The translations under genes were made by a program, and so were the position numbers. This document shows positions 28,862-61,173 of a stretch of DNA of 64,000 bases, piece after piece. The DNA is from an uncultured bacterium (GTDB taxonomy: Bacteria; Planctomycetota; JAJSAM01; JAJVHW01). The stretch's first letter is position 1; each line of letters opens with the position of its first letter. The notes under the pieces were generated by a model. The model made no database searches. It saw only the letters and a list, made by a program, of their open reading frames with translations, and had not been told where the DNA came from. The DNA lies in contig CALKVK010000015.1 in assembly GCA_937996235.1 (NCBI GenBank), positions 29,744 through 93,743 of the forward strand, written 5' to 3'.

Positions 28862-30475
28862 TCAGGCGATCGCGCCGGCGACCGCCTTCTTGCGATCCTT
28901 GCCCTTCAGCTCCGTCACCATCACGCGCGTCGTGAGCATGGTGCCCGCGACGCTGACCGCGTGCGTGAGAGCGGACTTCGTGACCTTCGTCGGGTCCACG
29001 ATGCCCGCACGGAACATGTCGACGAGCTTGCCGCTCTTCGCGTCGAAGCCGCGCGTCTCGCTCGACTCGGCGAGCACGTCGGCGACGACGACGGCGCCGT
29101 CGCCGCCCGCGTTCTGCACGATGCAGCGCGTCGGCGCCTCGAGCGCGCGGCGCAGGATGCGCGCCGCGAACTTCTCGTCGCCCTTCAGCTTGACGCCCTC
29201 GAGCGCCGCCGCCGCGCGCAGGAGCGCGGTGCCGCCGCCGGGAACGATGCCCTCGTCGACGGCCGCACGCGTGGCGTGCAGCGCGTCCTCGACGCGCGCC
29301 TTCTTCTCCTTCGACTCGGCCTCGGTGGCCGCGCCGACCTTCACGATGGCCACGCCGCCCGCCAGCTTCGCGAGGCGCTCCTGGAGCTTCTCGCGGTCGT
29401 AGTCCGACGTGCTCGCGTCGATCTGGCGACGGATCTGCGCGACGCGCTCGCGCACGGCCGCCTGCGCGCCGGCGCCCTCGATGATCGTGGTGTCGTTCTT
29501 CGTGATCTCGATCTTCTTCGCGCTGCCGAGCTCGGAGAGCTGCACGTCCTCGAGCTTGCGGCCGAGGTCCGCGGCGAAGAACTCGCCGCCGGTCAGCACG
29601 GCGATGTCGCCGAGCATGGCCTTGCGCCGGTCGCCGAAACCCGGCGCCTTCACGGCGCAGACGTTCAGCACGCCGCGCAGCCGGTTCACGACGAGCGCCG
29701 CGAGGACCTCGTTCTCGACGTCCTCCGCCACGATCAGCAGCGGCTTGCCCGTGCGCGCGACCTGCTCGAGCAGCGGGATCAGCTCGCGCAGCGTGGAGAT
29801 CTTCTTCTCGTGCACGAGCACGAGCGCGTTCTCCATCACGCAGCGCATCTTCTGCGTGTCGGTGACGAAGTACGGGCTCACGTAGCCCTTGTCGAACTGC
29901 ATGCCGTCCACGAAGTCGAGCTTCGTGTCCATGCTCTTCGCTTCCTCGACGGTGATCACGCCGTCCTTGCCGCAGCGCTCGACGGCGTCGGCGATCAGCG
30001 CGCCGATCGCCTCGTCCTGGTTCGCGGAGATCGTGGCGACCTGCGCCATCTCCTCGCGCTTCGCGACGGGACGCGACTGACGCCCGATCGCGTCGTTCAG
30101 CGCGACCAGGCACTTGTCGAGTCCGCGCTTGAGCGCCATCGGGTCGGCGCCGGCCGAGAGCACCTTCACGCCCTCGTCGATGATCGCCTGGGCGAGCACC
30201 GTCGCGGTGGTGGTGCCGTCGCCGGCGACGTCGCTCGTCTTGCTGGCGACCTCGTTGACGAGCTTCGCGCCCATGTTCTCGAAGGGGTCCGGCAGCTCGA
30301 TCTCCTTCGAGACCGTGACGCCGTCCTTCGTGACGCCGGGGCTGCCCCACTTCTTGTCGAGGATCACCGTGCGGCCGGCCGGTCCGAGCGTCACCTTCAC
30401 GGTGTTCGCCAGCTGGGCCACGCCCTTCTGGACCTTCTTCCAGGCCTCCTCGTCGAAGAGCAGTTGCTTCGCCAT
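28862..30475 (-). CDS. groEL: Chaperonin GroEL copy 1, with an atypical C-terminus that lacks GGM repeats
   Basis: [19 protein letters not shown]...[17 protein letters not shown]...[11 protein letters not shown]...[12 protein letters not shown]. It ends ...[13 protein letters not shown]. Confidence 0.95.
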
Positions 30476-30926: not shown

Positions 30927-32552
<1,626 letters not shown>

Positions 32553-32745
32553 CCGGACGTCTCCTTCTCGCTCGATCGTCTGCCGCGGTCCGCGCCGCGC
32601 CGTGTTCGGCCGGGCGCCCGCGCCGGGTGGGGCCGTACTCCCGCCCCATCGCGCCTCCGCATCCACCGTGCCGCGCCGCCCGGGCTCGCGCAGGCTCGCC
32701 TCCCGATGACACGCTGGCAGAACCCACGCACGCCCGTGCGCCCGC

Positions 32746-44076: not shown

Positions 44077-44154
44077 CGGGGCGTAGCTCAGCCTGGCTAG
44101 AGCGCCTGCTTTGGGAGCAGGAGGCCGGAGGTTCGAATCCTCTCGCCCCGACCA
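44077..44154 (+). tRNA. tRNA-Pro (anticodon TGG)
   Basis: CGGGGCGTAGCTCAGCCTGGCTAGAGCGC...anticodon loop CTTTGGGAG...GGTTCGAATCC...CGCCCCGACCA. This is a cloverleaf with an encoded CCA. Confidence 0.85.
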
Positions 44155-44186
44155 GAGCCCGCCCGCGCGGCCCGGCGGCGACGCAC

Positions 44187-44238
44187 ACACGGCACGCACG
44201 GCACGCACGGCACGCACGGCACGCACGGCACCGCACGC
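44187..44238. repeat. Microsatellite: 9-bp unit ACGGCACGC x ~5
   Basis: acggcacgc is repeated in tandem between tRNA-Pro and tRNA-Arg. It is followed by two imperfect ~24-bp direct repeats GCG(C/T)CTGCGACG(T/C)GCGCG(A/G)ACAC at ~44250..44300. Confidence 0.6.
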
Positions 44239-44304
44239 GCGCCGCACACGACGCGCCTGCGACGTGCGCGAACACGGCGCGTCTGCGACGCGCGCGGACA
44301 CAGC

Positions 44305-44381
44305 GCGCCGATAGCTCAGTTGGACAGAGCAGCGGATTTCTAATCCGCCGGTCGCAGGTTCGAGTCCTGCTCGGCGCGCCA
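44305..44381 (+). tRNA. tRNA-Arg (anticodon TCT)
   Basis: GCGCCGATAGCTCAGTTGGACAGAGCAGCGGATTTCTAATCCGC...GGTTCGAGTCCTGCTCGGCGCGCCA. Confidence 0.85.
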
Positions 44382-44457
44382 GCGCCGCGCGCGGCCCGGA
44401 CGGCGCATCGGCCGGACGAGACGCTGGCCGGACGACACGGTGGCCGGACGACACGGT

Positions 44458-44535
44458 GGTGGGTGTAGCTCAGTTGGTTAGAGCGCCTGACTGTGGCTCA
44501 GGAGGTCGCGGGTTCAAATCCCGTCACTCACCCCA
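44458..44535 (+). tRNA. tRNA-His (anticodon GTG) with a G-1
   Basis: G-GTGGGTGTAGCTCAGTTGGTTAGAGCGCCTGACTGTGGCTCAGG...GGTTCAAATCCCGTCACTCACCCCA. It is preceded by a 16-bp tandem duplication CCGGACGACACGGTGG x2. Confidence 0.85.
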
Positions 44536-44626
44536 TCCGGCAGCGTCCGGCAACCCGTCCGGCACCCGCTGCGGCAGCCCGTCGGGGCCGCGGTGACGGA
44601 CGCCACGCCGCTCCCGTCGCGGCAAC

Positions 44627-44655
44627 TTGCGGACGGCGCCGGGCCGCGCTATGAC
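44627..44655 (+). promoter_or_regulatory. Sigma-70-type promoter for tRNA-Lys
   Basis: TTGCGG - 17 bp - TATGAC, ending ~75 bp upstream of the tRNA 5' end. Confidence 0.4.
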
Positions 44656-44731
44656 TTGCCCTCCCGTGCCGGGCGCCGCTCGCGCGCGCCACGGCGGGGA
44701 CGTCGGCGGGCTCCCGCCGGCGGCGGAACGT

Positions 44732-44808
44732 GCCTCCTTAGCTCAGTTGGTTAGAGCAACGGATTCTTAATCCGTGGGTCCTAGGTTCGAGTCCTAGAGG
44801 GGGCACCA
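44732..44808 (+). tRNA. tRNA-Lys (anticodon CTT)
   Basis: GCCTCCTTAGCTCAGTTGGTTAGAGCAACGGATTCTTAATCCGT...GGTTCGAGTCCTAGAGGGGGCACCA. Confidence 0.85.
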
Positions 44809-46741: not shown

Positions 46742-47806
46742 GTGAGCGCACCGAATCCTCTCTGGGGCATCCACGTGACGCGCGGCGCCGTGTGCGGCGC
46801 GTTCGTCCTGCGCGGCGACGACGGGCGCCACGAGGTGCTCGACGGCTTCGTCGAGACGACCGCGGACGCGCCGCGCGACGCGGTGCGTCGGGCGCTCGCG
46901 CGGCGCGAGGTGCGCGGGCGTCCCGCGTGGATCGCCGTCGGCGACGAGAGCTGCGCCGTGGGCACCGGCGAGATCGACCGCTCCGAGCTCGAGATGACGG
47001 ACGAGGAGGTCGTGTTCACGCTGCACGACTTCGCGCCGTTCGAGCCGGGCGAGGGCCAGCTCCTCTACCACCGCGTCGGCAGCGGCGAGGAGCGCCGCTA
47101 CATGGTGGCGGCGGTGCCCGCGGCCACGTCCGCCGCGTTCGCCTCCGTGGCCGCGGAGCTCGATCCCGCGCGGCACGGCCTCGGCCTCGCCTCGCCCGCG
47201 CTGGCGCGCGGCGTGCGCGCGCTCGGACTGGTCGGGCGTTCGGGGTACGCGGTGGACGTGCAGGACGACGTCACCCGCGTGCTGGCGTTCGACGGCGACC
47301 GCGTGCGCCGCTACCTCGTGGCGGCCGGGCTGCGCGAGCTCGCGCGCGACGGCGGCGCGGTGGCGCTCGCCCACGACCTCGTGCGCCTCGCGGACTACCA
47401 CCGCGAGCTCTCGCGCCGCGGCCCCGGCGGGCCGCGGCCGGACTTCGCGCTCGTCGGCGCCGGCGCCTCCCGCGCGCGCGCCGCGCTCGCGGCCGCGCTC
47501 GGGGAGCGCCTCGCGCCCGCCGCGTTCCGCTCGGAGCCGACCCACGCCCTCGACGGCGCGGGGGGCGGCGCGCTCGACGACGCGCGCGCAGTCGAGCTCG
47601 TCGGAGCGGTCGGCGCGGCGCTCGAGGCGCTCGGCGCGCCGACCGCGCGACTGCCGCTCGCCGACGTGCCCGCCGACGTGCCCGACCCGCCCGCCGGACC
47701 GTCACCGACCGTCCAGGCGCTGCTCGTGGCCGCGGCCGTCGTCGCCGTCGGCACGGCCGCACTCGGCGTGTGGATCGCCCTCGGACGCCCCGGCGCGCGG
47801 GGGTGA
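46742..47806 (+). CDS. Hypothetical cytoplasmic protein with a C-terminal TM anchor; possibly PilM/GspL-like (speculative)
   Basis: GTG start. ~320-aa soluble region (WGIHVTRGAVCGAFVLRGDDG...RRYMVAAVP) followed by a single TM helix VQALLVAAAVVAVGTAALGVWIAL at the C-terminus. Confidence 0.45.
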   Translation: MSAPNPLWGIHVTRGAVCGAFVLRGDDGRHEVLDGFVETTADAPRDAVRRALARREVRGRPAWIAVGDESCAVGTGEIDRSELEMTDEEVVFTLHDFAPFEPGEGQLLYHRVGSGEERRYMVAAVPAATSAAFASVAAELDPARHGLGLASPALARGVRALGLVGRSGYAVDVQDDVTRVLAFDGDRVRRYLVAAGLRELARDGGAVALAHDLVRLADYHRELSRRGPGGPRPDFALVGAGASRARAALAAALGERLAPAAFRSEPTHALDGAGGGALDDARAVELVGAVGAALEALGAPTARLPLADVPADVPDPPAGPSPTVQALLVAAAVVAVGTAALGVWIALGRPGARG

Positions 47807-48056
47807 GAGCGCCCCGCGGAGGGCGGCCCGCAGGCCGCGCGCGACGCGGCGACGCCGCCCGCGAGAGGCTTGGAAAAATGACAGACGGGTGACGCGCCCC
47901 ATCTAGTAGAACTCCCCGTCTAGGAAGACGTCGCGCGCTCGGGCCGTGCTCCGGGGGGTCGGGTTCACCCCCCGCGGGCGCGGCGCGAGAGCGCGTTGGG
48001 AAAACCCCACGGAAGGGCCCCGTCGCGAACGGGTCCAGCACAGGGAGGGGCTACGA

Positions 48057-50696
48057 ATGAAGACGCCTCGAGTTGCCGCAGCGCTTGCGCTCGCGGGCGC
48101 GGCGCTGTCTCTGGGGGCTTGCAAGAGCGGCGAGTTCCCCTTCTTCGGTAAGAAGAAGGCCGCCGCCCAGCCGGCCGCCAAGAAGGCGGACGACGCGCAG
48201 CAGCCCGCCGCGGCCTCGGCCACGGCCGTCGCCAAGCCTGCGTCGGACGGCGCGCCGTCGCTCGACGAGGTGCGCAAGGACCGGAGCGTCCGCGAGCAGG
48301 CCCGGCAGACGCTCGTCCAGAACTTCCTCAAGATGGGCGACGACGCCTTCGCGGCTTCGCGCTTCGAGGACGCCGAGTCGCACTACAACTCGGTGCTCGA
48401 CCTCGACCCGTCGAACGAGCACGCCCGCCGGCGCATGCAGCAGATCGGTGCGGCGCTCGGCAAGCGCGGCGTGACCGAGGGCGAGGCGATGGAGGGCGCC
48501 CGGGACCTGAAGACGGTCCAGGTGCAGCAGGCCAAGGCCGAGGTCGCCCGCCTGGTCGCCGAGGGCAAGGCGAAGGCGGCGGCCGGCGACATGGCCGGCG
48601 CGGTCACCCGGTACGAGCGCGCGCTCGTGATCGAGCAGCTCTACCCGCGCACGGTCGACTTCAGCCCGACGCCGGACGGACTGCGCGCCATGCTGCGCTC
48701 CGCACGCGAGTCGGCCGAGGCCTCGGCCGACGCCGCGCGCCGCAAGGTGCTCCAGGAGGCGCACGACCAGGCGCGCCTCGAGGCCGCGCGCCAGCGCGCC
48801 GCCCAGCAGTCGCGCGTCAACAACCTGCTCAAGCAGGCGAACGAGGCGATGGAGCGCCGCAACTACCAGCTCGCCGAGAACCTGTCGGCCGAGATCCTGA
48901 CCTCCGACCCGCTCAACGCGTCGGCGAAGCGCCTGCGCGAGATCGCCCGCGACGCCCGCATGGCGGACGCCGACGAGCGCCTCCAGGCGACGCTCCTGAA
49001 CGAGTGGAAGTACACGTTCGCCGACCTGCGCGAGGCGACGACGCCGCAGGTCGAGGAGTACACCTTCCCCGACACGTGGAACGAGGTGCAGGGGCTGCGC
49101 ACGGCGCCCTCGCTCTCGGTCTCCGCGGCCGGCGAGGAGGACGCGCGCTCGCGCGAGGTGCGCAACCGCCTCGCCGCGGCCCGCACGACGATCAGCTTCA
49201 CGGACGCGACGCTCGACGAGGCGGTCGAGTACCTCGGCCGCGTCTCGGGCACGAACATCGTCGTCATGAACGAGGCCCGCGAGGGCCGCTCCGACGACGA
49301 GCTCGCGATCACGCTCAAGCTCGACTCGGCCGAGTCGGTCGACAAGATCCTCGAGCTGATCGCGCAGTTCAAGGGCCTCGCCTGGACGGTCGAGAACGGC
49401 ATCGCCCAGATCACGACGCCCGAGGCCGCGCGCGGCAAGTCGATCGTCCAGATGTACGACATCAAGGACCTCGCGACGCCGATCGCGAACTTCCCCGGCG
49501 ACGAGATCAACCTCGACCCGCAGGGTGAGCACGAGGTCGAGGAGGAGGTCCCGGAGCCGGTCGCCGAGTTCACCGGCGACGCGATCAAGGACCTGATCGA
49601 GCAGAACGTCGACAAGACGGTCTGGGAGGAGGGCGGCTCGATCGACCTCCTCGAGCCGGGCACGCTGGTCGTCAAGGCCCCGGCCACGACGCACGCGAAG
49701 ATCCAGAGCCTGCTCGGCGGCCTGCGCGGCGCCGGCGGCCTCGAGGTCTCGATCGAGACGCGCTTCGTCACGGTCGAGGACAACTTCCTGCAGGAGGTCG
49801 GCGTCGACCTGCGCGGCCTGGGCGACCAGTCCGGCGGCATCGGCGTGGCCGGCAAGGGCGGTCTCGCCGGACCGGGCGGCATCTCGGTGCCCGTCACGTT
49901 CGACGACCTGTTCTTCGGCTCGGCCGGCAACCCGTCCGGCATCGGCACGGGCGGCGACACCGGCATCTTCTACAACCTCAACAGCGACGGCGACATCCGC
50001 GGTCGCTTCGAGAACCTGTTCGACGTCGCGCTGGGCCGCCAGGGCGTCCTGACGAACCTGGGCGGCTTCTCGTTCCAGGGCACGCTGATCGACGACACGC
50101 AGCTCGAGGTCATCCTCCGCGCCGTCGAGAAGAGCAGCCGGAACACGCTCGTCGTGGCGCCGCGCCTCACGGCCTACAACGGCCAGCGCGCGAACGTCAC
50201 GGTCCTGAACCAGATCTCGTACATCTCCGACTTCGACGTCGAGATCGCCCAGGCCGCGCAGATCGGCGACCCGATCGTGCAGACCCTGCGCGACGGCGTC
50301 ATCCTCGACCTGCGTCCGGTCGTCTCCTCGGACCGCCGCTTCATCACCATGGAGCTGCGCCCGACGATCGCGCTGCTGCAGCGCCCGATCGCGACCTTCC
50401 AGACCACGCTGGCGAACGGCCCGCCGGTCACGATCCAGCTCCCCGAGATCCAGATCCAGCGCGTCCGCACGACGGTCACCATGCCCGACAACGGCACGCT
50501 GCTCCTGGGCGGCATGAAGTTCTTCACCGAGCAGCGGCTGGACTCCAGCGTCCCGTGGCTCTCGGACATCCCGATCGTCAGCTTCTTCGTCTCGCGCAAG
50601 GCGACGTACCTCGAGAAGCGCAACCTGCTCGTGCTGATCCGCGCGCGCATCCTGCGTCCCGAGGAGAACGAGCCCGGCTCGACCGTCGGTCGCTGA
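48057..50696 (+). CDS. Lipoprotein secretin 1: TPR-like N-region plus STN-like domain plus GspD/PilQ-type secretin C-domain
   Basis: RBS AGGGAGGGG. Lipobox MKTPRVAAALALAGAALSLGAC. STN-like ISFTDATLDEAVEYLGRVSGTNIVV. Secretin motifs are RFVTVEDNFLQEVGVDL...VVAPRLTAYNGQRANVTV...LLLGGMKFFTEQRLDSSVPWLSDIPIVSFFVSRKATYLEKRNLLVLIRARIL. Confidence 0.8.
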   Translation: MKTPRVAAALALAGAALSLGACKSGEFPFFGKKKAAAQPAAKKADDAQQPAAASATAVAKPASDGAPSLDEVRKDRSVREQARQTLVQNFLKMGDDAFAASRFEDAESHYNSVLDLDPSNEHARRRMQQIGAALGKRGVTEGEAMEGARDLKTVQVQQAKAEVARLVAEGKAKAAAGDMAGAVTRYERALVIEQLYPRTVDFSPTPDGLRAMLRSARESAEASADAARRKVLQEAHDQARLEAARQRAAQQSRVNNLLKQANEAMERRNYQLAENLSAEILTSDPLNASAKRLREIARDARMADADERLQATLLNEWKYTFADLREATTPQVEEYTFPDTWNEVQGLRTAPSLSVSAAGEEDARSREVRNRLAAARTTISFTDATLDEAVEYLGRVSGTNIVVMNEAREGRSDDELAITLKLDSAESVDKILELIAQFKGLAWTVENGIAQITTPEAARGKSIVQMYDIKDLATPIANFPGDEINLDPQGEHEVEEEVPEPVAEFTGDAIKDLIEQNVDKTVWEEGGSIDLLEPGTLVVKAPATTHAKIQSLLGGLRGAGGLEVSIETRFVTVEDNFLQEVGVDLRGLGDQSGGIGVAGKGGLAGPGGISVPVTFDDLFFGSAGNPSGIGTGGDTGIFYNLNSDGDIRGRFENLFDVALGRQGVLTNLGGFSFQGTLIDDTQLEVILRAVEKSSRNTLVVAPRLTAYNGQRANVTVLNQISYISDFDVEIAQAAQIGDPIVQTLRDGVILDLRPVVSSDRRFITMELRPTIALLQRPIATFQTTLANGPPVTIQLPEIQIQRVRTTVTMPDNGTLLLGGMKFFTEQRLDSSVPWLSDIPIVSFFVSRKATYLEKRNLLVLIRARILRPEENEPGSTVGR

Positions 50697-50860: not shown

Positions 50861-51149
50861 CCATCTGCCTGTTCGTCCCCGCGCGGGGCCCGGACACGAC
50901 ACGAGAGGGCCCGCGCGCATGCAGTTCCCCACACTCCCGGAACTCCTCCTCCGCGCCCGCGCGTCACGCGCCCGCGGATTGGTGACGAATGTTGCGCCGC
51001 CTCCGGCGCATGGCTACGATCCGGCGCCGACTCGTCCGGACTCCCTCCGGGGACGCGGAACCGCGGCGTCCGAGCGGCGCGCGGCGTCGCTCGCCGGGCG
51101 CGCGGCGGCATCGTGGCGCGCCCGTCGCGCCCCATCGACCGAGGTGACC

Positions 51150-54134
51150 ATGCCCCGCCGTTCGCTCCTCCCGCGCTTCGTCCTCGTGGTCGCCGGGCTC
51201 GTCGCGGCCTGCGGCATCGCCCACGCGTACGAGGACGACTTCGAGTTCGCGCAGGCGCTGGCGGACCGCGGCTACACCGACCTCGCGGAGCAGCAGTTCC
51301 GGGCCCTGCTCTCGGACCCGAAGCGCAGCGCGAAGGAGAAGGCCGAGGGGCAGTACGGGCTCGCGATCATCAAGCGCATCGACGCGCTCGCAGCGGCACG
51401 CGAGACGAGCGAGCGGCGCCGCAGGCCGCTGAAGGAGGTCCTCGACCTCTTCCGCCAGGCCGACGCGGCGATCGCCTCGTTCATCGAGGCCAACGCCGCG
51501 CACCAGCGCGTGCTCGAGGCGAAGCTCGACCGCGCGAACCTGATCACCGACCGCGCCAACTACATCAACCTCGCGATCGAGCGCGGCTGGCTGCCGGCGG
51601 ACGTCTCCGAGGGCGATCTGCAGAAGGAGGTCGCGCAGGGCTACGACACGGCGATCTCGCTCCTGCAGGCCGTGCAGGACAAGGCGAAGAAGGACGTCGA
51701 GGGCAAGGCGCTCGGCACCGAGGAGTACGAGGACGCGCAGGAGCGCCTGGGCCTCGTGTGGCTGCACCGCATCGTGGCGCTGTACGGCAAGGGCGCCGCG
51801 CTGCCGCGCGGCGACACGAGCGGCGTCGCCGCGCTGAACGCGGCGATCTCCGAGGTCACCGACTACCTGTGGTCGTTCGACGGCACGCTGCGCGGCCTGT
51901 GGGCCTCGTACTACGGCGGGCTCGCGAACTGGAAGCTCGACCGGACGACGGACGCCGTGCGCGACATGGGCGACGTCACGGGGTACGTGAGCGAGTCCGA
52001 CGGCGTCCCGGCGGCGCGCGGCGTCTCGCTGCAGGCGTACGAGATGCTCGGCACGATCGCGCTCGACGCCGCCGACCGCAAGGGCGAGGAGGAGCTCGCG
52101 CGCACGGCGCTGGCGCGCCTCGACCGCCTGCCCGGACAGTGGCCGACGTACCTCGACGACGCCGCCGGGCAGCGCGCGGCGGTGTCGCGCGCACGTCTCC
52201 TCGCTCGTGCGCAGCGCACGCGCGAGGCGATCGAGCTGCTGCAGAACGTCCTGAAGAAGGCCGACGAGAAGCACACGGGCGTCGACGGCGCCGCGGGCGA
52301 GCTGCTCGCCGAGCTCCTCACGTCGACCGCGTCGGGCGGCGTCAAGCTCGACCCGGCGCTCCTGAACAGGATCGCGATCGCGAAGTGGCGCGACGGCGAC
52401 TACCCCGGTGCGATCCGGGCGTTCCAGGGCGTCATCGGTGCGTGCCGCACGCCCGAGCAGCGCGACGAGTTCGCGTGGGACGCGTGGGACTACATCGGCC
52501 GCTGCTACGGCATCGAGGAGCGCTGGTACGAGGCGTTCCTGGCGTTCGACGCCATCGAGAAGGCGTGGCAGGCGGACCAGAAGAGCGCGAAGCTCGCCGA
52601 GATCACGCAGGAGACCGGCTGGAACCGCGCGCAGGTCGTCGGCAAGCTCGGCATCGTCACGAAGGACGCGGCGGAGTCGGCGCGGCTCAAGGCGTGGGCG
52701 AAGGAGCTCCTCGACGAGTTCGCGCGCAACCACCCGGAGAGCCCGCGCAACCAGGGCGCGGAGCTGCAGGCCGCGACCGAGAAGCTGCGCGACGCGCAGG
52801 GCATGCGGCGCACGGGCGACTACGCCGGCGCCCTCGCCAAGTACGACGAGGCGATCGCCGCCCTCACCGCGACCGACAAGGGCAGCAGCCAGATCGACAA
52901 GGTCGAGGCGCTGATCGCGCAGGCGCGCCGCGAGACCGCGCGCTGCCTGCACGAGCAGAAGGACGACGCCGGCGCGGTCAAGGCGCTCGACGAGGCGCTG
53001 CGGCTGTCGCGCGCGTGGCTCGCGAAGCAGCGCCCCGCGGCCGAGGTCTCGACGGTGCGCCAGGCGCGCGCCGCCGGCGAGTCCATCGCGCTCACGAACA
53101 TCCTGACCGCACTGGCGGAGAAGGCCGACTACGTCGCGCAGGACCAGCGCAAGGCGGTCTTCGAGGAGCTCCTGAAGGAGATCGACGCCAAGGGCGCCGA
53201 CTTCCTGCGGGCCGTGAGCCGCGGCCAGACCCTGCTCGACCAGTGGCGCACGGAGGCGCTGATCGGCACGGACCAGGTCGAGAAGGCGGAGAAGCTGCTG
53301 CAGGACCTGCTCGCCAAGGACCCGGATCTGGCGAACGGCCCCTACCTCGCCGCGCTGGTCGCGCGCGCGCTCGAGACCGAGGCCAACACCTGGCTCGACA
53401 AGGGCGACGAGGGCCGCTACCGCACGCTCATGCTGCGCTCGGCGCGCCTGCGCGAGTACGCGATCACCAAGGCGGGAGACCCGAGCCCCGAGTCGTACCT
53501 CTCCCTCGCCTCCACCTTCCGGAAGTCGGGAGACCTCGAGAAGGCCGAGGAGTACTACCGCAAGGCCCAGGAGGCCTACGCGGGGCGCGGCGACGACGAG
53601 CGCGCCCGCGCCGTGCGGCTCGAGCTGATCAACCTGCTCGTGGACCAGCGCAAGTTCGAGGACGCGATCCGGCCGCTCGAGGTCGAGCTCGTCCCCGACC
53701 AGGGCGCGCGCCTCGCCGTGCTCGACCGCCTCGCGAAGGACGACAGCCTCACGAAGGAGGAGCTCGAGAAGCTCCTCGAGACGATGTCGCGCAACCGGCG
53801 CGTGCTCGACGTGCTGGCGCGCGCGTACGTCGAGGCGGCGCGCGACGACAAGGACCTGCTGCGCTCCGTCAACCTGACGAACGTGCTGCTGTACTGCCAG
53901 CCCGACGAGGACAAGTACGGTCCCGACTGGGTCGAGTACCAGCTCCGCCTCTCCACGGCCTACTTCAAGTACGGCGCGCTGAAGAACGACCCCGAGGCCT
54001 TCAAGAAGGTCGAGCGGCTGATCCAGACGCGGCTGGTCGTGCAGAACCTGCTCGACACGTGCAACCAGCTCGTGCCGGGCTCGAAGAAGAAGTTCGAGGA
54101 CCTGCTCGCCCGCGCGAAGAGCGGGGGCAGGTAG
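51150..54134 (+). CDS. Large (994 aa) all-helical TPR-like lipoprotein
   Basis: Signal plus lipobox MPRRSLLPRFVLVVAGLVAACG. There are many TPR/Sel1-like helical pairs, e.g. YAGALAKYDEAIAAL...LSLASTFRKSGDLEKAEEYYRKAQEAY. The R-rich 77 codons upstream in the track ORF were rejected. Confidence 0.65.
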   Translation: MPRRSLLPRFVLVVAGLVAACGIAHAYEDDFEFAQALADRGYTDLAEQQFRALLSDPKRSAKEKAEGQYGLAIIKRIDALAAARETSERRRRPLKEVLDLFRQADAAIASFIEANAAHQRVLEAKLDRANLITDRANYINLAIERGWLPADVSEGDLQKEVAQGYDTAISLLQAVQDKAKKDVEGKALGTEEYEDAQERLGLVWLHRIVALYGKGAALPRGDTSGVAALNAAISEVTDYLWSFDGTLRGLWASYYGGLANWKLDRTTDAVRDMGDVTGYVSESDGVPAARGVSLQAYEMLGTIALDAADRKGEEELARTALARLDRLPGQWPTYLDDAAGQRAAVSRARLLARAQRTREAIELLQNVLKKADEKHTGVDGAAGELLAELLTSTASGGVKLDPALLNRIAIAKWRDGDYPGAIRAFQGVIGACRTPEQRDEFAWDAWDYIGRCYGIEERWYEAFLAFDAIEKAWQADQKSAKLAEITQETGWNRAQVVGKLGIVTKDAAESARLKAWAKELLDEFARNHPESPRNQGAELQAATEKLRDAQGMRRTGDYAGALAKYDEAIAALTATDKGSSQIDKVEALIAQARRETARCLHEQKDDAGAVKALDEALRLSRAWLAKQRPAAEVSTVRQARAAGESIALTNILTALAEKADYVAQDQRKAVFEELLKEIDAKGADFLRAVSRGQTLLDQWRTEALIGTDQVEKAEKLLQDLLAKDPDLANGPYLAALVARALETEANTWLDKGDEGRYRTLMLRSARLREYAITKAGDPSPESYLSLASTFRKSGDLEKAEEYYRKAQEAYAGRGDDERARAVRLELINLLVDQRKFEDAIRPLEVELVPDQGARLAVLDRLAKDDSLTKEELEKLLETMSRNRRVLDVLARAYVEAARDDKDLLRSVNLTNVLLYCQPDEDKYGPDWVEYQLRLSTAYFKYGALKNDPEAFKKVERLIQTRLVVQNLLDTCNQLVPGSKKKFEDLLARAKSGGR

Positions 54135-54152
54135 CCCGTGAGGGACGCAACG

Positions 54153-55316
54153 ATGCCGACGACCCGGAACACGCTCATCCGCCCTGCCGCCGCCCTGGCG
54201 CTCGCCTTGGCGCTCGGCTCACCGGCGCGCAGCGCGGACGACCACGCGGCCGCCGCCGGTCCGCCGCCGGACACGATCGTGTACGAGGACGGCGGCGAGC
54301 AGAAGTCGCGCACCGACGTCGTCGTCGAGAGCGCCGACTGGGACGCCGTCGCCTACAAGGCCGGCGCGCGCTCCGCGTCGCAGCCGGGCAACACGGTCGT
54401 CGAGGTGCGCTGGGGCGACGCGCCCCCGGAGTACGCCGTCGGCTGGCGCGCCGTCGCAGGTCGCGACGGTGCCGCCGCCCGCGACGCGTTCAACGCGTGC
54501 CTCGCCGCGAAGGCGGCGGGAGTGGTCTCGCGCCCGTGGATCGACGAGTACGCGCAGATCGGCCTCGGCGAGGCGTGCCTCCTGCTCGCCGCCGCCGAGA
54601 AGGGCAAGACGTCGGCGGCCGTCGACGCGTTCACCGCGGCGCAGAAGGCGAACCCCAAGAGCCTGATGGCGGATCGCATCCTGAAGGGGCTGGCCGAGGC
54701 CGCGCTGATCGCGGGCAAGCCGGACGAGGCGCGCAAGCAGAGCGACGCGCTCCTCTCGGCGGGCCGCACCGCGCGGCGCCCGGAGTGGGAGATCGACGCC
54801 CTCTTCCTGCGCGCCGACATCGCGCGTCAGGCGAAGAACCCGGCCGAGGTCTCGCAGGCGTACGAGGAGGCGGCCCGCGTCGCGGAGCAGCAGGCGGGCG
54901 CCGCGCGCGCCCCGGCGGAGCGCCAGCGCTTCGAGCGCCTGCGGCGCCGCGCGGCGGCGTCCGCGGGCTGGGTGCTCGTGGACCAGGCGCTCGAGACCAA
55001 GGCCCCGGCCGACTTCGACCGGGCACGCGACTACTTCCAGGGCCTGCCGGGCAAGCTCGGACAGGTGCCGGAGGTCCTCTCGTCGGTCGAGAACGCGACG
55101 GGCGTGATCAAGCTCGCCGCCGGCGACACGTTCGGTGCGCTCCACCACTTCCAGACCACCGAGGTGCTGCACTTCGGCGTTCCGGACGAGGTGGCGCGGT
55201 CGCTGTGGTACCAGGCCGAGTGCTGGGACAAGCTCGGCGACACCGCACAGAGGGACGCGCGGCTGCGCGACCTTCGCAAGTACTATCCCAAGTCAGAGTG
55301 GGCCCGGAGGAAGTAG
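54153..55316 (+). CDS. Periplasmic TPR-repeat protein (387 aa)
   Basis: Signal MPTTRNTLIRPAAALALALALGSPARSA. It ends in TPR-like helices (...ARSLWYQAECWDKLGDTAQRDARLRDLRKYYPKSEW). Confidence 0.6.
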   Translation: MPTTRNTLIRPAAALALALALGSPARSADDHAAAAGPPPDTIVYEDGGEQKSRTDVVVESADWDAVAYKAGARSASQPGNTVVEVRWGDAPPEYAVGWRAVAGRDGAAARDAFNACLAAKAAGVVSRPWIDEYAQIGLGEACLLLAAAEKGKTSAAVDAFTAAQKANPKSLMADRILKGLAEAALIAGKPDEARKQSDALLSAGRTARRPEWEIDALFLRADIARQAKNPAEVSQAYEEAARVAEQQAGAARAPAERQRFERLRRRAAASAGWVLVDQALETKAPADFDRARDYFQGLPGKLGQVPEVLSSVENATGVIKLAAGDTFGALHHFQTTEVLHFGVPDEVARSLWYQAECWDKLGDTAQRDARLRDLRKYYPKSEWARRK

Positions 55317-55405: not shown

Positions 55406-56140
55406 ATGCGCAAGTGGAAGAGCAACCTGACCGCCGGGCTGGCGGTGACGTTCATGACCGCGCTGCCGGCCGTGACCGCGTTCGCCCAGGACGCGGCCCC
55501 GGTGGTCGCGCCCGAGGACGAGGTGACCATCGGCAAGGTCATCGCGTGGGGCGGCGTCGTCGGCGGCGTGATCATCCTGATCTCGATCACGATGGTCGCG
55601 CTGGTCATCGAGCACTTCGTGTCGATCAAGCGCGACAAGATCGTGCCGCCCGAGATCATCGACGAGATCGAGGCGCTGTTCGAGGAGGAGGAGTACCAGG
55701 AGGCGCTCGAGCTCTGCGAGTCCGAGCCCAACTACCTCACGAACATGCTCGCGGCCGCGCTCCCGAAGATGAACGCCGGCTTCGACACGATGGAGGAGCA
55801 CCTCGACGAGGCGCACAGCCTCGAGGCGATGAAGCTCCACACCAAGATCAGCTACCTGTCGCTGATCGCGAACCTCGCCCCGATGCTCGGCCTGTACGGG
55901 ACGGTGCAGGGAATGGTGGGCGCGTTCAACAAGATCGTGCAGCTCGGACCGGCCGTGACGCCGAAGGACCTCGCCTCGGGCGTGCAGCAGGCGCTCATCA
56001 CGACGCTCTTCGGACTCGTCGTGGCGATCCCGGCGATCGGCTTCTTCTTCTACTTCCGTAACAAGGTCGTGCGGATCACCTACGAGTTCAAGGCGATCGG
56101 CGAGGACCTCATCGAGCGGTTCCGGCCGCAGCAGCGGTAA
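55406..56140 (+). CDS. exbB: MotA/TolQ/ExbB proton-channel protein with a cleavable N-terminal signal peptide
   Basis: RBS AAGGAG. MRKWKSNLTAGLAVTFMTALPAVTAFAQ signal. Three TMs plus the conserved LAPMLGLYGTVQGMVGAF...TTLFGLVVAIPAIGFFFYF motif. Confidence 0.85.
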   Translation: MRKWKSNLTAGLAVTFMTALPAVTAFAQDAAPVVAPEDEVTIGKVIAWGGVVGGVIILISITMVALVIEHFVSIKRDKIVPPEIIDEIEALFEEEEYQEALELCESEPNYLTNMLAAALPKMNAGFDTMEEHLDEAHSLEAMKLHTKISYLSLIANLAPMLGLYGTVQGMVGAFNKIVQLGPAVTPKDLASGVQQALITTLFGLVVAIPAIGFFFYFRNKVVRITYEFKAIGEDLIERFRPQQR

Positions 56141-56146
56141 CGCCAC

Positions 56147-56671
56147 ATGGCGAAGAAGCGCACGACTGCGGAGGCCGGGAAGGACGTCGAGGGCGGGGCC
56201 GAGATGGACATGACCCCGATGATCGACATCACCTTCCAGCTCATCGTCTTCTTCCTCGTCGCGAACGACCTGACCCGCAAGGAGGTCGAGGAGCTCAAGC
56301 TCCCGCAGGCGATCTACGGCAAGGAGGACAAGGCGACCGAGAAGGACCGCCGTGTGATCATCAACATCCTCGCCCCGGAGGACAGGGCGAACCCGCCTGA
56401 CATCCCCGAGGTGAAGGTCAAGGGCAAGCCCTACGGACTCGACGACCTCGAGCGTCTGATGCGCACCGAGGCCGACTCGAAGCGCGAGACGGACGGTCCG
56501 GGTGCGCCGAGTGCGATCTTCGTTCTGATCCGCGCCGACAAGGACACGCCGTGGCAGCACGTCCAGTACGTGATGCAGGTCTGCGCCGACCCGTCGATCC
56601 GCATCTACAAGATGCAGTTCGCGACGACGAAGCGTGACGACGGCAAGGCCACGTCGGCGAGCGGTGAATAG
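56147..56671 (+). CDS. exbD: ExbD/TolR family protein (paralog 1)
   Basis: MDMTPMIDITFQLIVFFLV TM region plus a periplasmic ExbD domain. Confidence 0.85.
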   Translation: MAKKRTTAEAGKDVEGGAEMDMTPMIDITFQLIVFFLVANDLTRKEVEELKLPQAIYGKEDKATEKDRRVIINILAPEDRANPPDIPEVKVKGKPYGLDDLERLMRTEADSKRETDGPGAPSAIFVLIRADKDTPWQHVQYVMQVCADPSIRIYKMQFATTKRDDGKATSASGE

Positions 56672-56680
56672 GAGCATCCC

Positions 56681-57199
56681 ATGAACGAAGAAGAGATGCC
56701 GAAGCCGAACATGACGCCGATGATCGACGTCGTGTTCCAGTTGCTGGTCTTCTTCCTCGTCTCGATGAAGTTCAAGACGCTGGACATGAAGATCGAGGCG
56801 TTCCTGCCGAAGGATCGCGGGCTTTCGCCCGAGATCGCGACGCTCGAGGAGAAGCCCAAGATCACCGCTGTGCTCAAGCGGAAGGTCGAGGGCGGAGGCC
56901 TCGAGAACAGCACGCGCATCCGTGTGCAGAACGCCACCCTCGGAACCGGCGACAAGCAGGAGACCTGGGATCTGCTCACGCAGCAGGCCAAGGCGCTCCT
57001 CGACCGCCACAAGGCGAACGGCGGCGCTGCGGAGGACGTGAAGGGCGAGGTCGATGCCTCGGCCCTCGTGCCCACGGGCGACGTCGTGCGTGCGGTGGAC
57101 GCGTTCCTCGCCGCCGGACTCCAGGACGTGACGTTCATCGGCACGCCCCCCCCGAACTCGAACCTGGCGAAGATCCGCAAGGCCGCGGGCACTCGCTGA
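56681..57199 (+). CDS. exbD: ExbD/TolR family protein (paralog 2)
   Basis: PNMTPMIDVVFQLLVFFLVSMKFKTLDMKIEAFLPK. Confidence 0.85.
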   Translation: MNEEEMPKPNMTPMIDVVFQLLVFFLVSMKFKTLDMKIEAFLPKDRGLSPEIATLEEKPKITAVLKRKVEGGGLENSTRIRVQNATLGTGDKQETWDLLTQQAKALLDRHKANGGAAEDVKGEVDASALVPTGDVVRAVDAFLAAGLQDVTFIGTPPPNSNLAKIRKAAGTR

Positions 57200-57389
57200 G
57201 GGTTCAGGACCCCGTATCGACCCCTTGCGCACACTCCGTGCCGCCCCGGCCCTGCCGGGGCGGCACACCGCGCTGCCTCCCCTGCCTGCCTGATCCCGAG
57301 TCGTGAGCGGGTGCTCGCGCGACGGCGCGACGCCCTCCCCCACCGCCTGTCCCGTCCCCGGCCGCGCGCGCGAGCGCAGGAGGCCGGAC

Positions 57390-57902
57390 GTGAGACGCCG
57401 ACGCGAAACCGACTCGAACCGCGACGCCACGGCGGCGTCGCCGGACCTGACGCCCCTCGTGGACGTCACCTTCCAGCTCCTCGTGTTCCTGCTCGTCGTG
57501 AACGACATCACGGCCCGGCAGAACGAGGAACTCGTGCTGCCGGAAGCGCAGCACGCGACCGAACTGCGCCCCGACGACGCGACGTGCACGGTCAACGTGC
57601 TCGCGCCCACGGACCCCGCGGACGACGCCGCGCCGCCGCGCGTGCGGGTGTCCGGGCGGACGCTCGACCTGCCGGATCTCGTCGACACGCTGCGCGCGTT
57701 CGCGGACCGCGAACGTGACGGCCGCGAGCCGCGCGCGCCGAGCGCGTCGGCCGTCCTGATCCGTGCCGACGCGGGCGCTCCGTGGCGCCACGTCCAGCTC
57801 GTCATGCAGGCCTGCGTCGACGACGACGTGCGCATCGTGCGCGTGCAGTTCGCGACGCGCGGCCCGGCCACCGAACCCAGCCGAGAGGAGGCACGCCGAT
57901 GA
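57390..57902 (+). CDS. exbD: ExbD/TolR family protein (paralog 3, divergent)
   Basis: GTG start with GGAGG 7 nt upstream. DLTPLVDVTFQLLVFLLVVNDI. The C-terminus RADAGAPWRHVQLVMQACVDDDVRIVRVQFAT parallels paralog 1. Confidence 0.7.
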   Translation: MRRRRETDSNRDATAASPDLTPLVDVTFQLLVFLLVVNDITARQNEELVLPEAQHATELRPDDATCTVNVLAPTDPADDAAPPRVRVSGRTLDLPDLVDTLRAFADRERDGREPRAPSASAVLIRADAGAPWRHVQLVMQACVDDDVRIVRVQFATRGPATEPSREEARR

Positions 57903-58354
57903 ACGACGACACACTCCCCCGCCCGAACATGACGCCGATGATCGACGTCGTCTTCCAGCTCCTGGTCTTCTTCCTCGTGTCGATGAAGTTCAAGACGCTC
58001 GACATGAAGATCGAGGCGCAGCTGCCGAAGCAGGTCGGGCTGAGCGACACGTTCGTCGATCCGCCGCCCGTCACACGCGTCTCGGCCCGGCTGGTCCGCA
58101 GCGGCCGGGCGACCGACCTGCGTCTCGACGGGCAGCGCCTCGGCACGGCCGACGATCCCGCGACGTGGGGGCGGCTCGCCGCATCGGCGCGCGGCATCCG
58201 CGCGCGGCACCTCGGCGCCGGTCTCGCGCCCGACGACCTCGTCGCGGAGGTCGACGGCAGCCGCGACGTCGCGACCGGCGACGTCGTGCACGCCATCGAC
58301 ACGCTGTTGGCAGCGGACATCGGGAACGTCCAGTTCCGCGGTGCCCGTCGGTGA
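57899..58354 (+). CDS. exbD: ExbD/TolR family protein (paralog 4)
   Basis: ATG overlapping the upstream stop (ATGA). PNMTPMIDVVFQLLVFFLVSMKFKTLDMKIEAQLPK. The 5' 96 nt are ~94% identical to paralog 2. Confidence 0.8.
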   Translation: MNDDTLPRPNMTPMIDVVFQLLVFFLVSMKFKTLDMKIEAQLPKQVGLSDTFVDPPPVTRVSARLVRSGRATDLRLDGQRLGTADDPATWGRLAASARGIRARHLGAGLAPDDLVAEVDGSRDVATGDVVHAIDTLLAADIGNVQFRGARR

Positions 58355-58391
58355 GAGGCACACCGCGTGCGAAGCACGCGGTGCGCCTCTC
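58353..58391 (+). terminator. Strong intrinsic terminator hairpin after the exbB-exbD x4 operon
   Basis: 18-bp stem GAGAGGCACACCGCGTGC / GCACGCGGTGCGCCTCTC (one mismatch) with a GAA loop. It overlaps the stop codon. Confidence 0.6.
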
Positions 58392-58668
58392 GCTCTAGTG
58401 GGGTGCACGCGGGCGTGCGTCACCTACGCAGGTGACGTCCGCCCCCTCGGTCGCACTGCCCGCGAGCACCATCCCGCCGGCACTGGCGCGTGCGGGGCAC
58501 GCGCGCGCCGGCGGGCGGCGGCCCTCTCGTTGCGAAGGGGACGGTCCTCGCGCAGGCTCGTGACGCAACGGGGAGTTGCGACGGGGACACTCCTGCCGCC
58601 GCGCGCTCGGGCGTCGGACGCGCCCCGCGATGACGATCGGGCGACGGAGCGCTGGTAGTGTCGCCGGG

Positions 58669-60552
58669 ATGCCGTCGCGTTCCGGTCCGCTGGTGGTCGT
58701 CGCGCTCTGCGTGGCGGGCGTCGTGGCGACCGCGCTCGCCTTCGTCTGGCGCGCGGAGCGACGCCCCACCGCCGTCGTCCTCATCAGCATCGACACGCTC
58801 CGCGCCGACCACGTGGGCGCCATCGCGGCGGCGACGGGCACCGACGGTGCTGCGGATCTGACGCCGCACCTCGATGCGCTCGCCGCCCGCGGCGCCGTCT
58901 TCACGCGGGCGTGGACGACCGCGCCCCTGACGGTCCCGGCGCACGCCAGCCTGCTCACGGGGCTCGTGCCGCCCGTGCACGGGCTGCGCACGAACTCCGG
59001 CGCGGCACGCATCCCGCCTGCCGAGACGCGGCGCTACCCGACGGTCGCCGAGGCGCTCCACGAGCAGGGCTGGCGCACCGGTGCGTTCGTCTCGGCGTCC
59101 GTCCTCCGCGCCGACCGCACGGGCCTCGCGGCCGGCTTCGACGTCTACGACGACGTCCCCGCCGCCGCCCCCGGGGCCCTGCACGACGCGGAGCGGCGCG
59201 CCGAGGAGACGGTCGCCGCGGCGCTCGCATGGCTCCGAGGCGGCTCCGGCAGCACGTTCCTGTGGGTGCACCTGTTCGACCCGCACGCTCCCTACGCCGC
59301 ACCGCAGCCCTGGGGCGCCGGCGCCGAGCACTCCGCGGACGCGACGGGGTACGCCGGCGAGGTCCGCTACGTCGATCATGCCGTCGGGCTCCTGCTCGAC
59401 GGACTCGCCGCCGCGGGCTACCGCAACGCCGCCGTCGTCGTCGTCGCGGACCACGGAGAAGCGCTCGGCGAGCACGGCGAGCCGACCCACGGCTTCCTGC
59501 TCCACGAGGCGACGCTGCACGTGCCGCTCCTCGTCGCTGCGCCCGGACTCGTGGCCGCAGGCCTCGTCCGCGAGGACCCGGTCTCGATCGCGGACGTCGC
59601 GCCGACGCTCCTCGGCTTCGCCGACGTGCCGGTGCCTCCGGGGCTCGGCGGGCGGCCGCTGTTCGCCGCCGGCGCACCGGGCGAGCGCCGGGCGCCCTAC
59701 GCCGAGTCGCTCTACGGCTGGGAGACCGCGCGCTGGGCGCAGGTGTTCGCGCTCCGCGACGGCGACCGCAAGCTGGTGGACGCGGGCCCGCACACGCTCG
59801 AGGCCGACCTCGCCCGCGACCCGCGCGAGCTCGCCGTCACCAGGCGCGCGGTCCCGTCGCCCGGGACCCCGCCCGCGGACGCGACGGCGGCCGCCGCGGA
59901 GCGCGACGTCGTCGAGTCCCTCCGGTCGGTCGCCGCCCTGCCGCCCTTGGACGCCCCGTCGGCCGCCGCAGCGCCGGAACTCGCGGGCGGCTCGTACTGG
60001 GCACCCGCCGGCACGGGAGCGACGACGATCCTCTCCCGCGCCGAGAACGCCGCCCTGCCGAGCCCCTACGACCGGATGGACGTCGTCCGCGAGCTCGACG
60101 CCGCCCGCGCGCTCCTCGCCGGGGGCGACCCCGCCCGCGCCGTGACCGCGTTCGCGGCGGTCGTCGCGCTCGACCCGGCGAACCCGCAGGCCCGCCAGTG
60201 GCTCGCACGGGCCCGGCTCGGAGCCGGCGACCCGCTCGGCGCGGCGGCCGACTTCCGGGCGGCGTTCGGGCTGGGCTGGCAGGACGCAGCCTGCGTCGCG
60301 AAGGCGCTGCAGGCCTCGGCGGCCGGCGTCGAGTCCGACCCCGAGGAGGCCGGGCGTGCCCTGAAGTTCCTGGAGGAGGCGCGCGGGAAGGGCCTCCGGA
60401 GCGACGGTCCCGTGTACGTGTTCGAGGCGCTGCTCCTGGCCGCGGCCGGACGGACGGACGCCGCCCGCCGCGCCCTCGCGGCGGCGCGCCGCGAGCCCCC
60501 GACGCCCTGGCTCGAGAAGGCCGTCCGGGAGCTCGGCGAGGCGCTGCGATGA
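58669..60552 (+). CDS. Membrane-anchored sulfatase/alkaline-phosphatase-superfamily protein with a C-terminal TPR domain
   Basis: TM LVVVALCVAGVVATALAFVW. VVLISIDTLRADHVG ... PAHASLLTG ... HLFDPHAPY ... VVVVADHGEALGEHG are sulfatase/LTA-synthase-type metal-site motifs. TPR-like helices follow from ~aa 480. In-frame alternative starts exist at 58576 and 58630. Confidence 0.7.
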   Translation: MPSRSGPLVVVALCVAGVVATALAFVWRAERRPTAVVLISIDTLRADHVGAIAAATGTDGAADLTPHLDALAARGAVFTRAWTTAPLTVPAHASLLTGLVPPVHGLRTNSGAARIPPAETRRYPTVAEALHEQGWRTGAFVSASVLRADRTGLAAGFDVYDDVPAAAPGALHDAERRAEETVAAALAWLRGGSGSTFLWVHLFDPHAPYAAPQPWGAGAEHSADATGYAGEVRYVDHAVGLLLDGLAAAGYRNAAVVVVADHGEALGEHGEPTHGFLLHEATLHVPLLVAAPGLVAAGLVREDPVSIADVAPTLLGFADVPVPPGLGGRPLFAAGAPGERRAPYAESLYGWETARWAQVFALRDGDRKLVDAGPHTLEADLARDPRELAVTRRAVPSPGTPPADATAAAAERDVVESLRSVAALPPLDAPSAAAAPELAGGSYWAPAGTGATTILSRAENAALPSPYDRMDVVRELDAARALLAGGDPARAVTAFAAVVALDPANPQARQWLARARLGAGDPLGAAADFRAAFGLGWQDAACVAKALQASAAGVESDPEEAGRALKFLEEARGKGLRSDGPVYVFEALLLAAAGRTDAARRALAAARREPPTPWLEKAVRELGEALR

Positions 60553-60637
60553 GCGCACTCCGGACACGTCGCGGAACCCCGGATTCGAGGCTGCGGCAGC
60601 GTGACAGACGGGTGACCTGCGAGGCGTAATCCGTGTT

Positions 60638-61062
60638 GGATTGAATGGTTGACCTCGTGTCCGAGCGCTGGCTAGCATCCGCGACTCGGGCACGGCCGGG
60701 CAGGCTCCGGATGCAGATCGGGAGAGGGTCCGGCAGGCTCGCGTGAGGCGGAGCAGCAGAGCGGCCGGATGGGCCGCGAGGCGGCCGTCGGGCGCGGGCC
60801 GGGGCACGTGACCGGACCGAAGGAACGGAAGGGCATGTCCTCCTCGATGGCGAGGAGGGCCGGAGGGAGGCCGCGCAGGCCGCCCCTCGTGGCCCGGCGA
60901 TCCAGCAGGATCGACGGGCGTGCAGGGCAGAGCCGGGTCGCTGATGCGATCCCGGACGGGAAGGACGGGCCCGGACAGGAAGAACGGGCACGGCGCCGTG
61001 CGGCCTCCGGGCTCGCACGTGGGCCGGTGCCTCCGCTGCGGAGGCACGTCACTCAGGTTTTT
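60638..61062 (+). ncRNA. Putative long GGA-rich leader or small RNA upstream of secretin 2
   Basis: Candidate promoter TTGACC - 17 - CTAGCAT (60638..60672). A ~380-nt purine-rich tract carries ~14 GGA motifs, including tandem 16-mers GGAC(G/A)GGAAG(G/A)ACGGG at 60954..60987. It ends with a 9-bp hairpin GTGCCTCCG-CTG-CGGAGGCAC (61027..61047) and TTTTT (61058..61062), ~110 nt before the ATG. Confidence 0.25.
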
Positions 61063-61173
61063 GGGCTGGAGCTTTCAGGGCAACGCGACCGGCGCGTCCG
61101 GCCGCAGTCCCGGGGCGTGCGGACGCGGGGTCCGACGCGCACCGGCACACCTCGACGGGAAGGGCAAGCACCT

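Follow-up and report, generated by a model that had tools for sequence, protein, structure and literature searches.

A conserved TGAC direct-repeat element upstream of two paralogous secretin genes in Planctomycetota genomes

Two secretin genes in a 64-kb stretch of DNA from an uncultured bacterium (the window) are preceded by copies of a short sequence that, judged by comparison of orthologous loci, appears to be conserved cis-regulatory DNA in front of both genes in at least ten Planctomycetota genomes. The likely functional core of this element is narrowed to the consensus TGACAGnCGGrTGAC, because the two copies differ at inner positions in other genomes. The element looks like the core of its own activator-dependent promoter rather than an upstream site of the canonical TTGACC/TAGCAT promoter of secretin 2, and it most probably serves as the docking site of a single transcription factor that induces the two genes together. 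A preliminary description of the window had proposed a shared operator or activator site before the two paralogues, and this proposal is supported both by conservation at 18 of 18 sites and by the rarity of the motif in 326 kb of related DNA.

A 15-mer shared by the upstream regions of two secretin genes

The window contains exactly two copies of the 15-mer TGACAGACGGGTGAC, at 47879-47893 and 60602-60616, both on the + strand, and no third copy is found within 3 mismatches on either strand of the 64 kb. The first copy lies 5' of secretin 1 and ends 163 bp before its ATG (48057). The second lies 5' of secretin 2, ends 557 bp before its ATG (61174), and is followed after 32 bp by the sequence TTGACC-N18-TAGCAT (60649-60678, + strand). 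The match does not extend beyond 15 nt: the flanking bases differ on the left (a/g) and on the right (g/c). Two TGAC words inside TGACAGACGGGTGAC form direct repeats spaced 11 bp apart. The preliminary description had these coordinates, the distances to both ATGs and the two TGAC words one helical turn apart all correct, and its observation that the 15-mer occurs only before the two paralogues holds for the window, with exactly two copies, one 5' of each secretin gene.

Secretin 1 (48057-50696, + strand) codes for 879 residues with a lipoprotein signal, a TPR-like N-terminal region and a secretin domain (Pfam PF00263, E 1.9e-24). Secretin 2 (61174-64000, + strand) runs past the end of the window, and the truncated protein matches PF00263 with an E value of 3.7e-6; its full-length form, P0029, is 100% identical, has 1034 residues and carries a precomputed PF00263 assignment. 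The two proteins share 34% identity over 760 residues (E 1e-108) and are true paralogues. Their best NCBIfam matches are Amuc_1098, PilQ, MshL and GspD, all with scores far below the family cut-offs. The C-terminal secretin domain is common to both proteins and to the secretins of PVC-type type IV pilus and type II secretion systems (the Amuc_1098 family, PilQ, MshL and GspD). Unlike those secretins, the proteins described here occur as two paralogues per locus, have a long TPR-like lipoprotein N-terminus, and lie in a cluster that also encodes two large TPR proteins, ExbB, four ExbD proteins and a sulfatase-TPR protein, rather than in one of pil or gsp genes.

The + strand holds all genes from ~46.7 kb to the end of the window. 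A gene for a 354-residue protein with no family match (46742-47806) directly precedes copy 1. Secretin 1 is followed by genes for two large TPR proteins (50919-54134 and 54138-55316), ExbB (55406-56140), four ExbD paralogues (56147-58398) and the sulfatase-TPR protein, a member of the sulfatase/phosphodiesterase superfamily (58576-60552), which ends just before copy 2. The 354-residue protein has no Pfam or NCBIfam match and has a hydrophobic helix at its C-terminus; it matches only the N-terminal ~320 residues of orthologues that are 598-813 residues long, and its C-terminal half seems to have been lost or to have diverged in the window genome. By eye, its N-terminus resembles PilM/GspL-like assembly proteins, a candidate likeness. 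The second and fourth ExbD genes have exact stretches of up to 29 nt in common (56705 versus 57923), which suggests recent duplication or gene conversion between them.

Other repeated features lie further upstream in the window. Four tRNA genes are clustered at 44077-44805, and a 9-bp tandem repeat, CACGGCACG (~44188-44231), separates the first of them from the second. Two adjacent Cpn60/GroEL paralogues on the minus strand (28862-30475 and 30927-32666) have exact stretches of up to 41 nt in common (29364 versus 31441).

Conservation of the element in related genomes

Taken alone, the repetition of a 15-mer in a single window is suggestive only. The preliminary description had argued that an identical 15-mer is unlikely by chance in a genome of such biased GC content, but on its own this argument is unsound: at 74% GC, exact repeats of 15 nt or longer number 340 in the window (175 direct, 165 inverted), and ~6 of these join approximately non-coding segments. 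When the two intergenic regions (47807-48056 and 60553-61173) are subjected to dinucleotide-preserving shuffles, 9 of 2000 leave them with a word of 15 nt or longer in common (p ~0.005, for a comparison chosen post hoc). The 15-mer is significant because it is conserved in other genomes and not because it is repeated in a single window.

Orthologous loci were taken from a species-representative genome collection and from contigs encoding homologues of each secretin. Ten genomes are represented: that of the window, L001/L002, L003 with L021, L004/L025 with L020, L005/L023, L006, L008, L022, L024, and L026/L027. The closest genomes are metagenome bins labelled Planctomycetota, and the secretin orthologues in the ten-genome sample are 56-75% identical to those of the window. 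Phylogenetic footprinting, which the preliminary description had recommended, recovers TGAC-N7-TGAC in all eight secretin-1 and all ten secretin-2 upstream regions examined, so that the repeat at the position of copy 2 is also there in nine other genomes. Each of the 18 sites has the orientation of the secretin gene and lies in the intergenic region directly 5' of it.

The two TGAC words (positions 1-4 and 12-15 of the motif) and their 11-bp period are invariant at the 18 sites, as is a purine at position 11. The remaining inner positions are conserved to varying degrees, with A at position 5 and G at position 9 in 16 of 18 sites each, G at position 10 in 15, C at position 8 in 13, and G at position 6 in 12. 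The columns flanking the motif carry 0-0.6 bits, and the conservation of the motif does not therefore merely reflect slow divergence of the whole spacer. Site 1 in the seven other genomes reads TGACAGAC[G/A]G[G/A]TGAC or TGACACGCAGGTGAC. Within a genome other than that of the window, the two copies differ at 1-6 inner positions, and the 15/15 identity in the window is the extreme case.

In distant low-GC relatives (L009-L014, ~35% identity) only a canonical TTGACG-N17-CATAAT promoter is found, and TGAC-N7-TGAC is not found in their upstream regions. The TTGAC-type canonical promoter accordingly looks ancestral in this comparison, and TGAC-N7-TGAC looks like a later, clade-specific addition. 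The bins of L004 and L003 encode a further protein, on other contigs (L016 and L018), that is similar to the middle region of the secretins (residues ~370-560, ~34% identity). The motif is absent near this protein, so the element is not tied to every relative of the secretin genes.

Outside the target sites the motif is rare. TGAC-N7-TGAC occurs 20 times in 326 kb of clade DNA, comprising the 18 target sites and two positions elsewhere, where block shuffles of the same DNA predict 4.8 +/- 2.3 occurrences in total. No match of at least 14 bits to the weight matrix exists besides the target sites in the window and loci L002-L019. The preliminary description had named an abundant dispersed repeat as the finding that would speak against a regulatory site; the sequence examined shows no such abundance, with 2 background copies in 326 kb against ~4.8 expected. 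A REP- or MITE-like dispersed repeat is likewise rejected, given two copies of the 15-mer in the 64-kb window and two background matches in the clade DNA.

It is very improbable that the shared word is a chance coincidence or the functionless remnant of a dispersed repeat or mobile element. The 340 pairs of exact repeats of at least 15 nt in the window, ~6 of them between non-coding segments, would make such a reading natural for the window considered by itself, but the motif is kept at both positions in ten genomes while its flanks have diverged, and its background frequency is low. A pattern scan of a metagenome collection with AAAAATGACAGNCGGNTGAC, an extended 20-mer from site 1, returns 23 matches in contigs of GC 0.37-0.72; all are unrelated, mostly low-GC contigs, and no secretin homologue is found in any of the 23. 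This number is close to a rough, order-of-magnitude chance estimate of ~14, and the scan consequently says nothing about a regulon; with looser patterns, chance matches would drown any signal. Comparison of the orthologous loci indicates that the reading as chance or dispersed repeat is effectively refuted by conservation.

A fixed -10-like hexamer downstream of the motif

At each of the 18 sites the motif is followed by an unconserved spacer of exactly 10 bp and a -10-like hexamer, TAnnAn, in which T26 is present in 14 sites, A27 in 17 and A30 in 16. The usual final T of a -10 element is found in only 4 of the 18, whereas canonical promoters of the same genomes (TAGCAT, CATAAT, TAGGAT) keep it. 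In the window, the hexamers are TAGTAG (47904-47909, + strand), 10 bp 3' of copy 1, and TAATCC (60627-60632, + strand), 10 bp 3' of copy 2. All eight site-1 orthologues have TAGTAG, TAGTAC or CAGTAT at this offset. The hexamers at the same offset of site 2 are more varied in the orthologues: TAACAC, TATCAC, TCTCAT, CATAAC, TAGCAC, TATCAG, AAAACT, GACGAT and TACCAC.

Two further conserved features accompany site 1. An UP-element-like GAAAAA tract (47873-47878, + strand) lies directly 5' of copy 1; it is present at all eight secretin-1 sites and absent at the secretin-2 sites. From its position, it could serve as a proximal UP subsite at -43 to -38 if transcription starts near 47916. In the predicted secretin-1 leader, ~13 nt after TAGTAG, a conserved AGGAAGACG box (47922-47930, + strand) is kept as GGAAGACG or GGAGGACG in all seven aligned site-1 orthologues and is present in an eighth.

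Site 1 does not conform to a canonical sigma-70 promoter. A consensus scan of 47700-48100 finds none. The first half-site, aTGACA, is identical to TTGACA at five of six positions, and TAGTAG resembles TATAAT at positions 1, 2 and 5. However, 20 bp separate the near-consensus aTGACA from TAGTAG, which is too long a spacer for a normal -35 element (16-18 bp is needed), and the -10 lacks its terminal T. The 20-bp spacer is found at all 18 sites, and the second TGAC, at 10 bp from the hexamer, is too close to act as a -35. With no scan match and a spacer of 20 bp, a canonical sigma-70 promoter at site 1 is rejected.

Secretin 2, in contrast, has a recognizable promoter of the canonical sigma-70 type further downstream. 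TTGACC-N18-TAGCAT (60649-60678) is detected by the consensus scan, with 0 occurrences in shuffles, and is conserved as TTGAC[CG]-N18-TAGCAT 5' of secretin 2 in all ten genomes. The preliminary description had linked copy 2 to this promoter. The position stands, since copy 2 lies 32 bp upstream of it, but a functional tie looks unlikely: across the ten genomes the motif precedes TTGAC[CG]-N18-TAGCAT by 18, 30, 31, 32 (in four genomes), 44, 86 or 120 bp. Because the distance to the canonical promoter varies and the 10-bp spacing to TAnnAn is fixed, the element looks like the core of a separate promoter.

The leader between this canonical promoter and the secretin-2 ATG (60679-61173) is 495 nt long in the window and 114-211 nt in seven orthologues, and the window appears to carry ~300 nt of extra non-coding sequence there. 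GGGCAY words occur between TAGCAT and the ATG, four times in the window and 1-4 times in the orthologues (L002, L020, L021, L022, L023, L024 and L026); shuffles predict 0.2-0.8. A factor that binds RNA or DNA could recognize these words.

Likeness to known activator sites

The layout of the motif is that of the direct-repeat boxes bound by regulators of the OmpR/PhoB family. Examples of such boxes are TCACAGC-N4-TCACAGC for PhoP of M. tuberculosis, GTTCACC-N4-GTTCACC for PhoP of S. coelicolor, and CTGTCAT-(A/T)4-CTGTCAT for PhoB of E. coli (PMC4832192, PMC2648988, PMC4415409), each bound by a tandem, head-to-tail dimer (PMC4832192; PMC2648988). The repeats of these boxes are ~6-7 bp long with a spacer of 4-5 bp and a period of 10-11 bp, and the motif fits this description as TGACAGn-CGGr-TGACnnn; a 7+4+7 layout with equivalent bases about one helical turn apart is common to both. 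The first half-site, TGACAG, agrees with its M. tuberculosis PhoP counterpart, TCACAG, at all but one of six positions (PMC4832192). The E. coli half-site CTGTCAT is matched on the other strand: its exact reverse complement, ATGACAG, is found at site 1, and the second repeat agrees in GTCA only.

The placement of the motif may also be similar. In activation complexes, the PHO box overlaps the -35 element, where the contact of sigma region 4 is displaced (PMC11825685). The motif would likewise cover the predicted -35 region, in a sequence with no usable -35 hexamer. Differences from OmpR/PhoB boxes are the second half-site, which is conserved as TGAC only, and the -10-like hexamer, which has no terminal T. 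Apart from the sulfatase/phosphodiesterase-superfamily protein, no phosphate-regulon gene lies in the neighbourhood, and there are no pst or pho genes in the 64-kb window. In the Pho promoters of E. coli, the 3' edge of the box is 10 bp from the -10 element; the 3' edge of the motif is at the same distance from its -10-like hexamer.

A second group of comparable sites consists of those of SARP-type activators in Streptomyces, which are heptamer direct repeats with 11-bp periodicity that end ~8 bp before the -10. As proposed for the motif, direct heptamer repeats one turn apart replace the -35 and stand at a fixed short distance from the -10, a tentative likeness. SARP repeats are TCGAGxx-like, whereas the repeats here are not, and no SARP gene is seen.

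A possible activator-dependent promoter and its alternatives

The best explanation of these features, which we hold with roughly even confidence, is an activator-dependent promoter that is bound by a regulator of the OmpR/PhoB type and co-induces both secretin genes. The two TGAC(A) half-sites, spaced by one turn of the helix (7 bp + 4 bp + 7 bp), would be occupied head-to-tail by a dimeric regulator, for which a winged-helix response regulator of the OmpR/PhoB family is the strongest candidate. The box would span about -37 to -23 and replace the -35 hexamer, and the bound regulator would recruit RNA polymerase to the weak TAnnAn element exactly 10 bp downstream. Transcription would then start at ~47916 for secretin 1 and ~60639 for secretin 2, and one signal would turn both genes on together. 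Secretin 2 would keep its constitutive-looking TTGACC-N18-TAGCAT promoter downstream, with a predicted start at ~60685, as the second of two tandem promoters. Binding by a protein, its OmpR/PhoB-type identity, and activation rather than repression are all features that we infer. The asymmetry of the repeat, with a second half-site conserved as TGAC only, counts against this explanation. A Pfam search of most predicted ORFs of the window, together with the neighbour gene calls of five loci, reveals no response regulator, sigma factor or anti-sigma factor gene. A FUR gene lies ~6 kb upstream of secretin 1 in L026. Nothing specific was found in the literature on Planctomycetes promoters or on this secretin system.

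An unlikely alternative is that an alternative sigma factor of the ECF or another group, reserved for these envelope genes, recognizes TGACAGnCGGrTGAC-N10-TAnnAn by itself, with no separate activator. The spacing from the motif to the -10-like hexamer is fixed at all 18 sites, no sigma-70 promoter is found at site 1, and the hexamer has lost the terminal T that the canonical promoters of these genomes keep; on this last point an alternative sigma factor and a weak activator-dependent -10 fit about equally well. The conserved block, which measures 15 bp, and 21 bp if the A tract is counted, and has two repeats 11 bp apart, is however longer and more repetitive than a contact of sigma region 4, neither TGAC lies at a normal -35 distance (the spacers are 20 and 10 bp), and there is no sigma or anti-sigma gene nearby. 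Nor does the motif resemble the generally known ECF, sigma-32, sigma-28 or sigma-54 consensus sequences when compared by eye; the ECF consensus, for example, is GGAAC...CGTC. Individual resemblances break down on inspection: CCCCATCT before TAGTAG is like a sigma-32 -10, but its spacing from CTTGGAA is 21 bp, and it is neither conserved in the orthologues nor present at site 2, while CTGGCTAGCATCCGC at site 2 is one base short of the sigma-54 spacing. A MerR-type promoter with an overlong spacer is also rejected, as the conserved part of the spacer is a direct repeat and not a palindrome.

It is quite unlikely that the motif is an operator or upstream site through which other promoters are modulated, whether by a repressor or, at secretin 2, by a class I activator of TTGACC-N18-TAGCAT; in that case TAnnAn at +10 would belong to the protein footprint rather than act as a -10 element. 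At six of the ten secretin-2 sites the motif does end 30-32 bp before the canonical -35, but the remaining distances of 18, 44, 86 and 120 bp show no clear helical phasing, and site 1 offers no other recognizable promoter on which an operator could act. A lone secretin homologue (L007, 49% identity, in a different neighbourhood) has an inverted TGACACGTCGGTGAC on the minus strand (9665-9679), adjoining a divergent gene and 30 bp before TTGCGC-N17-TAGGAT, and independence of orientation would fit a plain transcription factor site. This copy may reflect such orientation-independent use of the same site, or it may be due to chance, which by base composition would produce one at ~0.004 per 350-bp region, with several regions inspected.

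An RNA-level element or terminator hairpin is extremely improbable. A simple scan does flag a stem-loop with a T5 tail on the minus strand at 47905-47882, over copy 1, but no minus-strand gene ends there, RNAalifold finds 0 consensus pairs among eight site-1 orthologues, and copy 2 has neither a stem partner nor a T/A run. The motif is a direct and not an inverted repeat, and Rfam gives no match at it. A coding constraint was considered because in some orthologues the preceding ORF is called as ending at a TGA within the motif. In the window, the upstream ORF stops 73 bp before the motif, and site 2 lies ~50 bp past the stop of the sulfatase gene, so that use as a stop codon cannot explain both TGACs at both sites.

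Implications

The motif represents, as far as comparison of the loci allows, a new and specific cis-regulatory motif with an architecture of a familiar kind, from a phylum that has received little study. Very little is known about how Planctomycetota regulate their genes, and the genomes compared here are available as metagenome bins only. The method itself carries a lesson for such genomes: at 74% GC, an exact 15-mer repeat alone is no evidence, and comparison of orthologous loci can recover the true signal.

A bolder reading, which we consider unlikely, is that motif-N10-TAnnAn forms a class of promoters peculiar to this lineage, that either a dedicated alternative sigma factor or a new kind of activator reads it, and that it defines the regulon of an undescribed trans-envelope machine of Planctomycetota. 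If this is true, the machine would consist of the two paralogous TPR-secretin lipoproteins, the giant TPR proteins, ExbB with four ExbD proteins, and the sulfatase-like protein, and the motif would provide a handle for finding its remaining genes in uncultured genomes.

The common conserved motif is evidence for co-regulation of the two secretins, which probably work in one process. Its weight matrix can be scanned over complete bins, which may reveal the rest of the regulon and give a hint at the inducing signal, and the motif is a defined DNA bait with which the regulator could be identified.
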